Below, piece by piece: positions 47,308 to 58,459 of a DNA stretch of 64,000 nucleotides (its first letter is position 1; the number at the start of each line of letters is the position of its first letter). Below the pieces are notes generated by a model. That model searched no databases. It was not told the origin of the DNA and saw only the letters and a list, made by a program, of their open reading frames with translations. The stretch lies in assembly GCF_056746865.1 (NCBI RefSeq), contig NZ_CM163382.1; one strand, written 5' to 3'. Both the position numbers and the translations under genes were made by a program.

Positions 47308-49272
47308 ATGAACATTTCGGAAGTCGATCTGCATAAACTGACGGTCAGCGATCCGTTCCTCGGTCAGTACCAACAACTGGTCCGCGATGTGGTGATTCCT
47401 TATCAGTGGGACGCCTTGAACGATCGTATCCCAGAAGCGGAACCCAGCCATGCGATTGAAAACTTTCGCATTGCCGCAGGACTGCAAGACGGTGAATTTT
47501 ACGGGATGGTGTTTCAGGACAGCGACGTCGCCAAATGGCTGGAAGCGGTAGCCTGGTCGCTGTGCCAGAAGCCGGATGCCGAACTGGAAAAAACTGCTGA
47601 CGAGGTGATTGAACTGATCGCCTCCGCCCAGTGCGAAGATGGCTATCTCAATACTTACTTTACGGTAAAAGCGCCCGAAGAACGCTGGAGCAATCTGGCG
47701 GAGTGTCATGAACTTTACTGCGCCGGTCATCTGATTGAAGCCGGAGTCGCCTTCTTCCAGGCCACGGGCAAGCGGCGCTTGCTGGAAGTGGTTTGCCGTC
47801 TGGCCGATCATATCGACAGCGTATTTGGTCCAGGTGAAAGTAAGTTACACGGTTATCCTGGTCACCCGGAAATTGAACTGGCACTAATGCGCCTGTATGA
47901 AGTGACCGAAGAGCCGCGCTACCTGGCGCTGACGAACTATTTTGTCGAACAGCGTGGTGCGCAACCGCACTATTACGACCAGGAATATGAAAAGCGCGGG
48001 CAGACCTCGCACTGGCACACCTACGGCCCGGCGTGGATGGTGAAAGATAAAGCCTACAGCCAGGCGCATTTGCCCATCGCACAGCAACAAACCGCCATCG
48101 GACATGCAGTACGCTTTGTCTACCTGATGACTGGCGTCGCACATCTGGCGCGTTTAAGTCACGATGAAAGCAAGCGTCAGGATTGCCTGCGGCTGTGGAA
48201 CAATATGGCCCAGCGTCAGTTATATATTACCGGCGGCATTGGCTCACAAAGCAGCGGTGAAGCGTTCAGCAGCGATTACGATCTGCCGAATGACACGGTA
48301 TACGCTGAAAGTTGCGCCTCCATCGGCCTGATGATGTTTGCCCGGCGAATGCTGGAAATGGAAGGCGACAGTCAATATGCCGATGTGATGGAGCGCGCGC
48401 TGTACAACACTGTGCTCGGCGGCATGGCACTGGATGGCAAACATTTCTTCTATGTGAATCCGCTGGAAGTACATCCAAAATCGCTGAAATTCAACCATAT
48501 CTACGATCACGTTAAACCGCTCCGCCAGCGTTGGTTTGGCTGCGCTTGTTGTCCTCCAAATATCGCCCGCGTACTGACCTCGATTGGTCATTATCTCTAC
48601 ACGCCGCGTGAAGATGCGTTGTATATCAACATCTACGCAGGAAACAGCATGGAAGTGCCGGTAGAAAATGGCACGTTGTGCCTGCGGGTTAGCGGGAACT
48701 ATCCGTGGCAGGAACAGGTGACAATTGCGGTTGAATCGCCCCAGCCGGTGCGTCATACGCTGGCTTTACGTCTGCCGGACTGGTGCACACAGCCGCAGAT
48801 CATATTGAATGGGGAAGAGGTCGAGCAGGATATTCGTAAAGGGTATTTGCACATTACCCGCGAATGGCAGGAGGGCGATACGCTGAATCTGACTTTGCCG
48901 ATGCCGGTACGCCGCGTTTACGGTAACCCTCTGGTGCGTCACGTCGCCGGAAAAGTGGCGATTCAGCGCGGCCCGCTGGTGTATTGCCTGGAACAGGCCG
49001 ACAACGGCGAGTCACTGCATAACCTGTGGCTGCCCGCCGATGCGCCATTTACGACCTTTGAAGGCAAGGGATTGTTCAGCCATAAGATCTTAATCCAGGC
49101 ACCGGGTTACCGGTATGAACAGAGCAATCCAGAGCAGCAACCGCTGTGGCATTACGACAGTGCGCCAGCCAAACGCCAGCCGCAAACTCTGACGTTTATC
49201 CCGTGGTTTAGCTGGGCTAACCGGGGTGAAGGCGAAATGCGGATCTGGGTGAATGAGGAAACCAGCGCATGA
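47308..49272 (+). CDS. GH127 family (DUF1680) glycoside hydrolase, putative beta-L-arabinofuranosidase
   Basis: Translation MNISEVDLHKLTVSDPFLGQYQQLV...; motifs SGEAF, YAESCAS and WFGCACCPPN in spacing matching the HypBA1 Glu/Glu-x-Cys/Cys-Cys catalytic and Zn site as recalled; ATG 47308 preceded by AAGGAG, 10 bp after transporter stop. Confidence 0.85.
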   Translation: MNISEVDLHKLTVSDPFLGQYQQLVRDVVIPYQWDALNDRIPEAEPSHAIENFRIAAGLQDGEFYGMVFQDSDVAKWLEAVAWSLCQKPDAELEKTADEVIELIASAQCEDGYLNTYFTVKAPEERWSNLAECHELYCAGHLIEAGVAFFQATGKRRLLEVVCRLADHIDSVFGPGESKLHGYPGHPEIELALMRLYEVTEEPRYLALTNYFVEQRGAQPHYYDQEYEKRGQTSHWHTYGPAWMVKDKAYSQAHLPIAQQQTAIGHAVRFVYLMTGVAHLARLSHDESKRQDCLRLWNNMAQRQLYITGGIGSQSSGEAFSSDYDLPNDTVYAESCASIGLMMFARRMLEMEGDSQYADVMERALYNTVLGGMALDGKHFFYVNPLEVHPKSLKFNHIYDHVKPLRQRWFGCACCPPNIARVLTSIGHYLYTPREDALYINIYAGNSMEVPVENGTLCLRVSGNYPWQEQVTIAVESPQPVRHTLALRLPDWCTQPQIILNGEEVEQDIRKGYLHITREWQEGDTLNLTLPMPVRRVYGNPLVRHVAGKVAIQRGPLVYCLEQADNGESLHNLWLPADAPFTTFEGKGLFSHKILIQAPGYRYEQSNPEQQPLWHYDSAPAKRQPQTLTFIPWFSWANRGEGEMRIWVNEETSA

Positions 49273-49343
49273 TGCGACGCTTAACGCGTCTTATCAGTAT
49301 CAACATATCGGTGCGGTTGCCCGCTAACCATCGAAACGCGAGA

Positions 49344-49754
49344 TTAAACGCCCGGCAATACACGCCGGGCAGCTTCTGCCAGAAACGCACTTCTGTTGGC
49401 GTAGTCTGGGTTATTGCGCACGTAGGTATCAATCTTGTTCAGTAACCTTTTCGGCATCGTAATATTGATACGTTCAGCCCGACCTTCGAACTGATTCATA
49501 TTGATATCCACCAGCAACCATTGCCCGCCAATAAAGTCCTGCGCACGCTGGACCAGATGTGTTTCCACAGAGCCTGGAAGCGGCAACTCTTCATTCATCT
49601 CGCATAAGGTTTCGAAGTGCGCGACCAGTGCACTTCGCGCATCCTGGAAAGCGTTGTCCAGCGTATCACCAGCAAAATAACAGCCTGGAACATCAGGGAA
49701 AAAACCGCTGGCGCTGCCGTCAGGATCACTGTGGATATAGGCGGGATAAAACAT
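49344..49754 (-). CDS. hicB: HicB-family antitoxin (RNase H-like N-domain plus C-terminal ribbon-helix-helix)
   Basis: Translation MFYPAYIHSDPDGSASGFFPDVPGCYFAGDTLDNAFQDARSALVAHFE...NITMPKRLLNKIDTYVRNNPDYANRSAFLAEAARRVL. Confidence 0.8.
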   Translation of the reverse strand: MFYPAYIHSDPDGSASGFFPDVPGCYFAGDTLDNAFQDARSALVAHFETLCEMNEELPLPGSVETHLVQRAQDFIGGQWLLVDINMNQFEGRAERINITMPKRLLNKIDTYVRNNPDYANRSAFLAEAARRVLPGV

Positions 49755-49770
49755 ATTGCCTCCTGAAATT

Positions 49771-49956
49771 TTAAAATGTTAAACCAGCCTGACGCCCAAT
49801 TTGCGCCAGCGTACCGGGCTTAATATCTTTTTTAGGGTGCGGAACCGTCACCAGACCCGGATGAACAGGGTGGCGGAACTGATGATGACTGCCACGGGTT
49901 CGAATATGTTCCCAGCCATGCTGCTTCAGGATGGCGATCACGTCTGCACTTTTCAC
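49771..49956 (-). CDS. hicA: HicA-family toxin (YcfA-like mRNA interferase), 61 aa
   Basis: Translation MKSADVIAILKQHGWEHIRTRGSHHQFRHPVHPGLVTVPHPKKDIKPGTLAQIGRQAGLTF; 16 bp upstream of hicB on same strand. Confidence 0.8.
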   Translation of the reverse strand: MKSADVIAILKQHGWEHIRTRGSHHQFRHPVHPGLVTVPHPKKDIKPGTLAQIGRQAGLTF

Positions 49957-50182
49957 ATCCCTGCCCTTCCATGATTATACACACGATACACACACAATTA
50001 GCGATAACAATCACGATAGCGCGATTTATATGGGCCGTCAGGGGGATAAAGTTGACTCAGGAATGCCACTCGGAAGAAGAATAACGGTGTGCAGTAATTG
50101 GTAGAAAATATGCGAGGAGACTCGTAATTAAGTTCAATCAATATTCAGTCATTCAAGACGTAGACATTTGAATTGATAAAAC

Positions 50183-50202
50183 GCGCAAACGTCGCATCAG
50201 GC
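50183..50202. repeat. REP-like element (gcgcaaacgtcgcatcaggc) immediately downstream of aldB
   Basis: Matches REP consensus core. Confidence 0.5.
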
Positions 50203-50233
50203 AATGAATACCCAATGCGACCAGCTTCTTATA

Positions 50234-51772
50234 TCAGAACAGCCCCAACGGTTTATCCGAGTAGCTCACCAGCAGGCACTTGGTTTGCTGGTAATGCTCA
50301 AGCATCATCTTATGGGTTTCGCGTCCGATGCCCGACTGTTTGTAGCCGCCAAACGCCGCATGTGCCGGGTAAGCGTGATAACAGTTGGTCCACACGCGTC
50401 CAGCCTGAATGCCGCGCCCCATCTTATAGGCCAGATTACCGTTGCGGCTCCAGACACCCGCGCCCAGGCCATATTGTGTGTCGTTCGCCAGCTCCAGCGC
50501 TTCTTCCATCGTTTTGAAGGTGGTCACCGCCAGCACCGGACCAAAAATTTCTTCCTGGAACACGCGCATATTATTCTGACCAAACAGAATCGTCGGTTCG
50601 AGGTAGTAGCCGTCTTTCAGTTCTCCTTCCAGCAGCTTGCGCCGCCCGCCGGTGAGCACGTCTGCGCCCTCTTTTTTACCAATATCAATGTAGTTGAGGA
50701 TGGTTTCCAGTTGCCCGTGAGAAACCTGCGCGCCCATTTGCGTCACGCTGTCGAGCGGGTTACCGCTACGAATACTTTCAACACGGCGGATGGCGCGTTC
50801 CATGAAGCGTTCGTAGATAGACTCCTGCACTAAAGCACGGCTTGGACAGGTGCAAACTTCGCCCTGGTTAAAGGCAAACAGTGCAAAGCCTTCCAGCGCT
50901 TTATCAAAAAAGGCATCTTCTTCATCCATCACGTCAGCAAAGAAGATATTTGGCGATTTGCCGCCCAGCTCCAGCGTCACCGGAATAATGTTTTGCGTGG
51001 CGTATTGCATAATTTGTTGACCCACTTCCGTTGAGCCGGTAAACGCCACTTTGGCGATGCGTTTCGAGGTCGCCAGATATTCGCCAATTTCCCCACCTGC
51101 ACCGTTGACCACGTTCACCACGCCCGGCGGCAGTAAATCACCGACGATTTCCATTAGCAGCAGTACAGAAAGCGGGGTAAGACGTGCGGGTTTCAGCACC
51201 ACACAGTTGCCCGCCGCCAGCGCGGGAGCCATTTTCCAGCTCGCCATCAGCAGCGGGAAGTTCCACGGAATAATCTGCCCCACCACGCCTAACGGTTCGT
51301 GGAAGTGATAAGCCACAGTTTCGCTATCCACTTCACTAATACCGCCTTCCTGCGCCCGAATACACGAGGCAAAATAGCGGAAATGGTCAATCGCCAGCGG
51401 TACATCAGCAGCACTGGTTTCGCGAATGGGTTTGCCGTTATCCCAGGTTTCAGCCGTCGCTAACAGTTCAAGGTTTTGTTCCATTCGATCGGCAATCTTA
51501 AACAGAATCGCCGCGCGATCCTGCACCGAGGTATGCGCCCATTTATCTTTCACTTTGTGCGCAGCATCCAGCGCCAGATCGATGTCTCGTTTGCCCGAAG
51601 ACGCCACTTCGCACAGCCGCTGCCCGGTCACCGGCGTCAGGTTCTGGTAATACTCGCCGTCGGCAGGGGCTACCCATTCGCCGCCAATAAAGTTGTCGTA
51701 GCGGGCTTTTAACTTGAGGGGGAAACCATACTCGCCGGGCTTAATCTGTGCTGAAGGGGGATTATTGGTCAT
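50234..51772 (-). CDS. aldB: Aldehyde dehydrogenase B, 512 aa
   Basis: Translation [48 protein letters not shown]...; start at ATG 51770..51772. Confidence 0.96.
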
Positions 51773-57322: not shown

Positions 57323-58459
57323 TCAATGATCCAAATAAAGATAATGCATCCAGCTGGTCATTCTTAGCAGCACTTTCCGCATCACCGAAACATGGCTGAA
57401 ATGGTCGGAGTAAACCGCCACCTGGGCGTAGATGCCGTCGGGTAAGGCATCGATATCATCGTTAGGGTCCAGTTCAATGGTTCCCAGCACACCGTCCGTG
57501 CCGGGCACGACCGTTAATGATTGCAATACCCCCTGCGCCTGATAAGAACCGCCTGGCACGACAGGTAAAATACTGGTCAGTTTGCCGTGGAACACCTGCC
57601 CAGGTAGCGCGTTAAACACCACTTCCGCATCATCGCCGGGTTTCAGACGTAACAGCGAGTTTTGCCGAAATTGGGCGACAATTTGCCGTTTTTGCTCGGG
57701 GATGAAAACCATCACCGGACGCAACGGCAAGGCAGCTGCGTATGTACCTGGGCGGATCAGTACCTGAGTAACGTAGCCATTGCTCGGCGCGCGAATGACA
57801 GTCTGCTCAAGGTTATATTTTGCTTCAGTAAGTTGCGCTCTTAAGCTCACAATCTGCGATTGCTCGCCGTTAACCATACTATCGAGCTGGCTCTGGATCT
57901 GCGCCTGCTCCGCCACCGAGCCTTTCACCAGCGCATCCTGCGCGAGGAAATTTTGCCGCGCATCGTCGATGTCACGTTCCGAGAACGGATTCACCGCCGC
58001 CTGGCTGCCTTTCAGATAACGTTGATAATTTTTAAACAGACGGTCGCGCTCCGCTGAAACCTGGGTGGTGTTGGCCTGCGCTTCAGTGAGCTGCGCGCGC
58101 AGCGTCTTTATATTATGCGTCGCCGTCATCAGGTCAGCCTGAAGTCTGTCAACTCGCGCCTGGTAACGAACCGGGTCGAGTTTAAAAAGCACCTCGCCCT
58201 TTTGAATAAGCTGATTATTTTTGTCGGTGACTTCAGTAACAATTCCCGTCACCTGTGGCGTGATGGGGATCGCTATCACTGCCTTTTGCGCGGTAAAAGT
58301 GTAAGGGTGGTTGTAGTTCATCAACAAAATCAAACCACTCACCAGAAACACGCCTCCCAGCGCCGCCGTCGCCAGCGTCCACTGATTCACCGGAATGCGG
58401 AAGATTTTAAAGACCGCCCACGCCAGCGCCACGTAAGTTAAAACAATCAATAGATCCAT
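57323..58459 (-). CDS. yibH: HlyD-family membrane fusion-type inner membrane protein YibH
   Basis: Translation [52 protein letters not shown]...; 378 aa. Confidence 0.9.

Follow-up and report, generated by a model that had tools for sequence, protein, structure and literature searches.

A hicAB-type toxin-antitoxin pair with a predicted ribbon-helix-helix antitoxin at the aldB/GH127 site of Escherichia coli and related genera

INTRODUCTION

What is the pair of small genes that lies between a GH127 gene and aldB in a 64,000-nucleotide stretch of DNA from contig NZ_CM163382.1 (RefSeq assembly GCF_056746865.1; the whole stretch is referred to here as the window), and is it part of an accessory cassette or a long-standing resident of the site? 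A preliminary description read the pair as hicAB, placed it at the edge of an accessory cassette, and proposed that it could stabilize the adjacent DNA or act in stress or phage responses. A literature search found no paper on this hicAB locus. Here, we describe the identity, domains, and catalytic residues of the two proteins, the conserved promoter blocks upstream of them, and the synteny, purifying selection, and distribution of the locus.

RESULTS

The two genes form a toxin-first pair that public annotation already names

In the list of open reading frames (ORFs), hicA (49771..49956, minus strand) has a GTG start and encodes 61 amino acids (MKSADVIAILKQHGWEHIRTRGSHHQFRHPVHPGLVTVPHPKKDIKPGTLAQIGRQAGLTF), and hicB (49344..49754, minus strand) has an ATG start and encodes 136 amino acids. 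The sequence between them is a 16-nt spacer (49755..49770, minus strand) that runs from the hicA stop codon to the hicB ATG and contains the Shine-Dalgarno sequence AGGAGG (49764..49759, minus strand), which ends 4 nt before the ATG; a CAGGAG ahead of hicB is conserved among orthologues. The pair is flanked by the GH127 gene (47260/47308..49272, plus strand), which is convergent with hicB, and by aldB (51772..50234, minus strand), co-oriented with hicA and upstream of it. The sizes, spacing, and location of both ORFs are therefore those given in the preliminary description.

The toxin-first order that it proposed is borne out as well. The two genes are adjacent, co-oriented on the minus strand, and separated by only 16 nt with the toxin upstream, and the same order was found in every orthologous locus with a detectable hicA, two of which (L006 and L013) keep only a truncated hicA. 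A toxin-first order with a short gap is the arrangement of class 3/4 hicAB operons (Gerdes 2024, PMC10865869).

When 5,426 complete E. coli genomes were searched by megablast, a 1,051-bp stretch including the locus was 100% identical in many strains. In RefSeq genomes that are identical over this stretch, PGAP calls both ORFs with unchanged boundaries and names them "type II toxin-antitoxin system HicA family toxin" (WP_000833473.1) and "HicB family antitoxin" (WP_000499744.1). The pair is a genuine but ordinary hicAB, already named in public annotation of E. coli. Over the last hicB codons there is a GC-rich, terminator-like hairpin with a poor T tract (49349..49371, minus strand; 9 pairs, 7 of them G-C), which is weak evidence for a terminator, as one such hairpin was found against 1.2 expected by chance. 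Within 49000-50500, the only Rfam match was a subthreshold, REP-derived one to naRNA4, so there is no support for an RNA gene there.

HicA retains the catalytic loop of its family

The names of both proteins rest on homology to Pfam families and to structures in the PDB, and both Pfam matches are far beyond chance; NCBIfam had no match for HicA or HicB. HicA matches the Pfam family HicA_toxin (PF07927) with an E value of 2.1e-23 (82.6 bits) over model positions 2 to 58 of 58, in agreement with the earlier assignment of this ORF from its GSHH and HP motifs. The catalytic loop, RGSHH, spans residues 21 to 25, with G22, S23, and H24 intact. The nearest solved structures are those of Burkholderia pseudomallei HicA (4c26/6g26; E ~1e-16), and H24 aligns with the position that carries the H24A mutation in 4c26. 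G22/S23/H24, P39, P41, D44, and G48 are all conserved in B. pseudomallei HicA, with identical numbering. In that protein both G22 and H24 are required for toxicity, as the G22C and H24A mutants are nontoxic (PMC3969222). By homology, HicA is predicted to adopt a dsRBD-like fold and to act as an mRNA interferase that does not depend on the ribosome. Codon 54 of E. coli HicA (49795-49797 in the window) encodes Gly (QIGRQAG), while the orthologues of all other genera have Trp (QIWRQAG).

HicB belongs with the ribbon-helix-helix antitoxins

HicB matches the Pfam family HicB_lk_antitox (PF15919) over the whole model (positions 1 to 123 of 123; E = 9.1e-36, 123.2 bits). Among solved structures, it aligns nearly end to end with B. 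pseudomallei HicB (6g1n; residues 2 to 133, 2.8e-25) and Yersinia pestis HicB3 (4p78; residues 1 to 132, 1.6e-21), and both alignments include the ribbon-helix-helix (RHH) segment. The RHH of the window protein, at approximately residues 95 to 133 (ERINITMPKRLLNKIDTYV...NRSAFLAEAARRVL), aligns with those of 6g1n and 4p78. A construct that consists of the N-terminal domain alone (6g1c) also matches (3e-13), as does the N-terminal domain of K-12 HicB, and no alignment was obtained to the helix-turn-helix part of K-12 HicB (6hpb). These comparisons uphold the previously proposed architecture of an N-terminal domain followed by a C-terminal RHH; as far as sequence can tell, full-length alignment to solved homologues settles the fold. 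By the same comparison, the N-terminal domain would be a HicA-binding domain with a partial RNase H fold.

Class 4 hicAB pairs are those whose HicB carries an RHH (Gerdes 2024, PMC10865869). Because the alignments to the B. pseudomallei and Y. pestis proteins include the C-terminal RHH, we assign the pair by sequence to the classical hicAB systems with RHH-type HicB, class 4 of that scheme, and regard it as distinct from the helix-turn-helix paralogue of K-12. The earlier statement that this is not the K-12 hicAB locus accordingly holds: 6hpb aligns with the window HicB over residues 1 to 66 only, and K-12 HicA was undetected at E<=0.01. The B. pseudomallei and Y. pestis systems, rather than K-12 HicAB, are the proper models for the pair.

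Conservation across genera locates a promoter and a candidate operator

A strict sigma-70 scan found no promoter at hicAB because a -35 hexamer is absent, and the promoter was located instead by cross-genus conservation. For 19 loci representing at least 10 genera, we aligned the 150 nt that precede hicA. Only two blocks of this intergenic region are conserved, and the rest could not be aligned. The first block, GTGTGTAT-CG-TGTGTATAAT in the window (49974..49993, minus strand) and GTGTGTAT-nn-TGTGTATAAT across genera, is a promoter and candidate operator. It contains two copies of the heptamer TGTGTAT at a spacing of 9 bp (49992..49986 and 49983..49977, minus strand), the second of which overlaps a perfect -10 hexamer, TATAAT (49979..49974). 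This hexamer ends 17 nt before the hicA start codon, which makes for a very short leader. Before the hicA GTG there is a weak Shine-Dalgarno-like GGAAGG (49965..49970, minus strand), of which AAGG is partly conserved, and the GTG start itself is kept in 19 of 19 orthologous loci. The second block is the box TATCGTGAT (TAnnGTGAT across genera; 50010..50018, minus strand), which lies 30 nt upstream of the -10 and is related to the -10 block as a direct repeat (D2) at a spacing of 30 bp.

The preliminary description had looked to inverted repeats in this region as HicB sites, and characterized HicB operators are described as palindromic (PMC10865869). The region did not bear this out, as the conserved elements are direct repeats. 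The inverted repeats comprise only two weak, distant pairs, which are associated with REP sequence and were rejected as operators. The main sites of Y. pestis HicB3 and B. pseudomallei HicB overlap the -10 (PMC11594946, a 2024 review), and because RHH-type HicBs have their main sites there, we infer that the heptamer pair is a candidate HicB operator.

The role of the TATCGTGAT box is less clear-cut. If TATAAT occupies -12 to -7, the box is centered near -41, and it resembles one half-site for CRP (TGTGA). The second half-site is not conserved, so the box could be a CRP-like half-site or equally a second HicB operator subsite. The P1 promoter of K-12 hicAB is CRP-Sxy dependent, and K-12 HicB autoregulates (PMC11951105, PMC7167474); a CRP-like reading of the box would fit this control. 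The weak translation signals of hicA and the strong ones of hicB would fit the usual pattern for such systems, in which translation of the antitoxin is the more efficient (PMC7167474). The conserved footprint provides a precise operator hypothesis for an uncharacterized E. coli toxin-antitoxin system.

The pair occupies the same site in other enterobacterial genera

Twenty-seven related loci were found when each species was represented by a single genome, and the pair lies beside GH127 in at least 10 enterobacterial genera. With neighbor proteins as tblastn queries, we found it beside GH127-MFS-AraC in several species of Enterobacter and in Lelliottia, Citrobacter, Yokenella, Pseudocitrobacter, Trabulsiella, Phytobacter, and Pluralibacter. 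The HicB proteins of these other-genus loci are 75 to 86% identical to the window protein. In Yokenella, the gene order is exactly that of the window (selB-yiaY-aldB-hicA-hicB-GH127). The convergent adjacency of hicB and GH127 is probably ancestral, because their stop codons are only ~4 to 60 nt apart in four genera (Yokenella, Pluralibacter, Lelliottia, and Enterobacter). Relative to hicAB, the yiaT/U(/V/W) block is found toward aldB in Enterobacter, Lelliottia, and Pseudocitrobacter but toward GH127, as yiaWVUT, in Escherichia sp. E1V33 (L005), where hicAB is present too.

In pairwise comparisons with the window genes, dN/dS was at most 0.13 for both hicA and hicB, with synonymous sites saturated, and the values for GH127, MFS, and AldB were similar. 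Searches of plasmids and phages found no close hicAB copy; the best true plasmid match was 58%, on a Salmonella plasmid, and an origin in a mobile element was rejected for want of close copies in either collection. Two matches of at least 99% in the plasmid collection are chromosomes of ~4.9 Mb filed as plasmids. Records H76, H77, H79, and H80 of this collection (4.1 to 4.9 Mb; E. coli and Proteus mirabilis) are chromosomes, which makes seeming plasmid hits of 99 to 100% identity an artifact of how the collection was assembled.

Because synteny extends across genera, dN/dS is low, and plasmids and phages hold no close copy, we read the pair, on this comparative evidence, as having long resided at the aldB/GH127 site through vertical inheritance and the K-12 state as derived. 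This reading displaces the earlier placement at the edge of an accessory cassette, since the pair and AraC-MFS-GH127 are syntenic across many genera and K-12 holds a scar and pseudogene fragments in their place.

Most E. coli strains retain only a scar of hicB

The full pair is present in 505 of the 5,426 complete E. coli genomes (~9%), at least 489 of which have the direct GH127-hicB junction. At least 3,397 genomes, K-12 and BL21 included, lack the pair and carry only a scar of hicB. The preliminary description took K-12 to lack such a pair beside aldB, and this proved correct; a remnant of the 3' end of hicB is found there instead. The corresponding segment of the window (49315..49427) comprises HicB codons T110 to L125, a degenerate C terminus with stop codon, and 29 nt downstream. 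Over these 113 bp the match is ~84%, and a 49-bp core that encodes T110 to L125 is 98 to 100% identical in the 3,397 genomes. In both K-12 and BL21 the scar lies between yiaW and aldB (5945-6049 in L002, NEB10-beta, and in L003, BL21). It is unannotated in either strain; PGAP has a 47-amino-acid "hypothetical protein" (WP_001066080.1; L002 5838-5981) on the opposite strand, the last codons of which run into the hicB remnant.

Three states of the locus could be distinguished. In the window and in 118UI, the order is sgbE-AraC-MFS-GH127-hicB-hicA-aldB, with no yiaTUVW. BL21 has AraC-MFS-GH127, yiaT-U-V-W, the hicB remnant, and aldB. K-12 has araC and GH127 pseudogene fragments followed by yiaT-U-V-W, the hicB remnant, and aldB. 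The K-12 fragments (L002 2040-2333) derive from the AraC-family regulator and GH127, the GH127 piece being 190 bp long and 90.5% identical. Because K-12 keeps these pseudogene fragments, the AraC-MFS-GH127 cassette was lost in K-12 rather than gained here.

Breakpoints were taken from local blastn, as a global MAFFT alignment misaligned the rearranged region. By this method, homology to K-12 and to Escherichia sp. E1V33 ends at 49315, and homology to K-12 resumes at 50174. K-12 lacks window positions 49428-50173, which hold the promoter, the whole of hicA, and hicB up to its nucleotide 327. Between the GH127 end and the region downstream of hicB is a REP-like junction (GATGCGACGCTTAACGCGTCTTATCAG; 49263..49314), and comparison with BL21 places the yiaW-V-U-T block of other E. 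coli strains at this position. GH127 matches in other arrangements end ~11 nt before the end of the gene, and the four terminal GH127 codons of the window (EETSA before the stop) differ from those of BL21 (EEKHRHPEVG before the stop). On the right, the DNA absent from K-12 is bounded by a REP element (50172..50201, minus strand) just downstream of the aldB stop (50234). REP-type palindromes (49263-49300 and 50172-50201) flank hicAB exactly where homology to K-12 and BL21 breaks, which suggests REP-associated rearrangement at the edges of the hicAB segment. The window arrangement may be either directly ancestral or the product of a secondary loss of yiaWVUT.

Approximately 7 kb beyond aldB lie yibH and yibI (L001 23124-24625; yibH at ~57323-58459 in the window), paralogues of yiaV and yiaW with 77% and 75% protein identity, respectively. 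The window strain has kept this yibHI copy and has no yiaT-U-V-W.

Disabled toxins recur beside intact antitoxins

In chromosomal toxin-antitoxin pairs, the toxin is expected to decay first. A disabled hicA beside an intact hicB was found in 6 of 20 related loci. Three carry substitutions in the catalytic loop: H24R in an E. coli-like contig of a "Collinsella" metagenome-assembled genome (MAG) (L004, 356-538), H24P in Enterobacter chuandaensis (L014, 5801-5983), and H25Q in Pseudocitrobacter (L021, 5799-5981). The gene is frameshifted in Escherichia sp. E1V33 (L005, 169-351) and has an internal deletion in two Enterobacter MAGs (L006, from 5927; L013, from 5876). In Lelliottia nimipressuralis (L028), hicA was undetected and the hicB match was weak and shortened. 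The window hicA allele is free of all six defects. The contig with the H24R allele (JAIJJM010000854.1) is 1,246 bp long, is assigned to "Collinsella sp.," and carries an E. coli hicAB at 98 to 99% protein identity; it is almost certainly a binning contaminant.

Six dead toxins among 20 loci, together with loss of the pair in most E. coli strains, show that selection for an active toxin is not universal. They also raise the possibility that the module as a whole is decaying or domesticated, with an attenuated or inert toxin, a HicB that is kept as an RHH transcription factor or as an anti-addiction antitoxin, and a K-12-type loss ahead. The recurrence of toxin-disabling changes beside intact hicB, the split between 505 genomes with the pair and at least 3,397 with the scar alone, and a W54G change in HicA that is specific to the E. 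coli lineage all lean this way. The window gene does not: its reading frame, its GTG start, G22/S23/H24, and the other family-conserved residues are intact, its dN/dS against other-genus orthologues is ~0.05 to 0.13, and H24R is a variant allele rather than the window sequence. We consider it unlikely that decay describes the pair.

The neighborhood does not resemble a defense island

HicA modules are often found in defense islands and may act against phage (Gerdes, mBio 2024, PMC10865869), and P2-like and other phages carry HicB-like genes with 39 to 43% identity. The pair might accordingly act by abortive infection, in which the shutoff of transcription by a phage would deplete HicB and the freed HicA would destroy mRNA. 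The context of the locus argues otherwise. PADLOC models match neither protein (E<=0.01); the neighbors are genes of sugar and aldehyde metabolism, with none for defense; the locus shows synteny and vertical inheritance over genus-level distances, unlike defense islands, which are shuffled; and the closest true plasmid match, at 58%, is no close copy, nor is any phage sequence. A role in phage defense therefore seems to us quite improbable.

That the pair serves as an addiction module protecting the AraC-MFS-GH127 cassette from deletion, a form of the earlier suggestion that it stabilizes adjacent DNA, fits its adjacency to GH127 in the window, in many genera, and in at least 489 of the 505 hicAB-bearing E. 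coli genomes but is contradicted by the distribution of GH127, which is full length in 2,314 of 5,426 E. coli genomes, ~1,800 of them without hicAB (so that the pair is not needed to hold this DNA), by BL21, which has AraC-MFS-GH127 with only the hicB scar, and by the clean deletion of hicAB itself from most E. coli strains, a sign that it does not prevent local deletions, and we regard the idea as very improbable.

DISCUSSION

Taken as a whole, a type II hicAB pair with an RHH-type HicB, working by the mechanism set out below and long resident at the aldB/GH127 site, is very probably the right account of this locus. Its activities are drawn from characterized homologues. HicA would be a small endoribonuclease with a dsRBD fold that cleaves mRNA via His24, independently of the ribosome. 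The N-terminal, partial RNase H-fold domain of HicB would bind and block HicA, as the complexes 6g26 and 4p78 imply for neutralization, and the C-terminal RHH, formed on dimerization, would repress the operon by binding to its promoter, an autoregulation that the homologues share. Transcription most likely starts from a promoter that lacks a -35 and whose perfect -10 ends 17 nt before the hicA GTG, with the TGTGTAT direct repeats over the -10 as putative operator and the TAnnGTGAT box 30 nt upstream serving either as a half-site for a CRP-type activator or as another operator; this assignment, too, leans on the homologous systems. The toxin would be made sparingly, given its GTG start, weak Shine-Dalgarno sequence, and very short leader, and the antitoxin abundantly, from AGGAGG and ATG.

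Across genera, then, the pair has been conserved as a chromosomal toxin-antitoxin system, stable and in synteny. One tentative idea, which may well prove wrong, is that it is a nonselfish, anciently fixed host pair in which the TGTGTAT operators and the CRP-like box tie toxin release to carbon starvation. If so, the polymorphism within E. coli (9% intact, most scarred, and occasional dead toxins) would be a natural experiment on ecological selection. What the analysis adds is a set of modest refinements, namely, the subclass, the ancestral status, the K-12/BL21 scar, the direct-repeat promoter footprint, and the recurrent toxin-dead alleles. The practical value is small, as routine annotation is confirmed and nothing here would surprise a toxin-antitoxin specialist; the more useful points are evolutionary, namely, the cross-genus conservation of the pair, the unannotated hicB scar in K-12 and BL21, the recurrence of dead toxins beside intact antitoxins, and the operator hypothesis that the promoter footprint offers.

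Of the characterized systems, HicAB of B. pseudomallei (BPSS0390/0391; 4C26, 6G1N, and 6G26) is the best solved-structure match for both proteins. Like the pair described here, it is a toxin-first operon whose toxin has the G22-S23-H24 loop and whose antitoxin combines an N-terminal domain with a C-terminal RHH, and its HicB operator is reported to overlap the -10 in a promoter with a predicted CRP-type site (PMC11594946). The sequences are nevertheless clearly divergent. In addition, the operator in B. pseudomallei has been described as one palindrome, in contrast to the direct TGTGTAT repeats conserved here. The B. pseudomallei complex is an A4B4 octamer.

HicA3-HicB3 of Y. pestis (4P78 and 4P7D) is likewise enterobacterial and chromosomal, with an RHH-type HicB. 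The hicA3B3 operon has a single promoter upstream of hicA and two HicB sites, the main one over the -10 (PMC11594946), and the two conserved promoter blocks found here resemble this two-site layout. HicA3 is, however, only a distant match to the window toxin (E = 1e-4), and hicA3B3 occupies a different chromosomal locus. The K-12 HicAB system (yncN/ydcQ; 6HPB) shares the family, the toxin-first order, and the species with this pair. Its HicB is a helix-turn-helix protein that aligns with the window HicB over the N-terminal 66 residues only (E = 1.2e-5), its HicA was undetected at E<=0.01 with the window HicA as the query, and its genes lie at another locus; the pair beside aldB is thus a paralogue of K-12 hicAB and not an allele of it.
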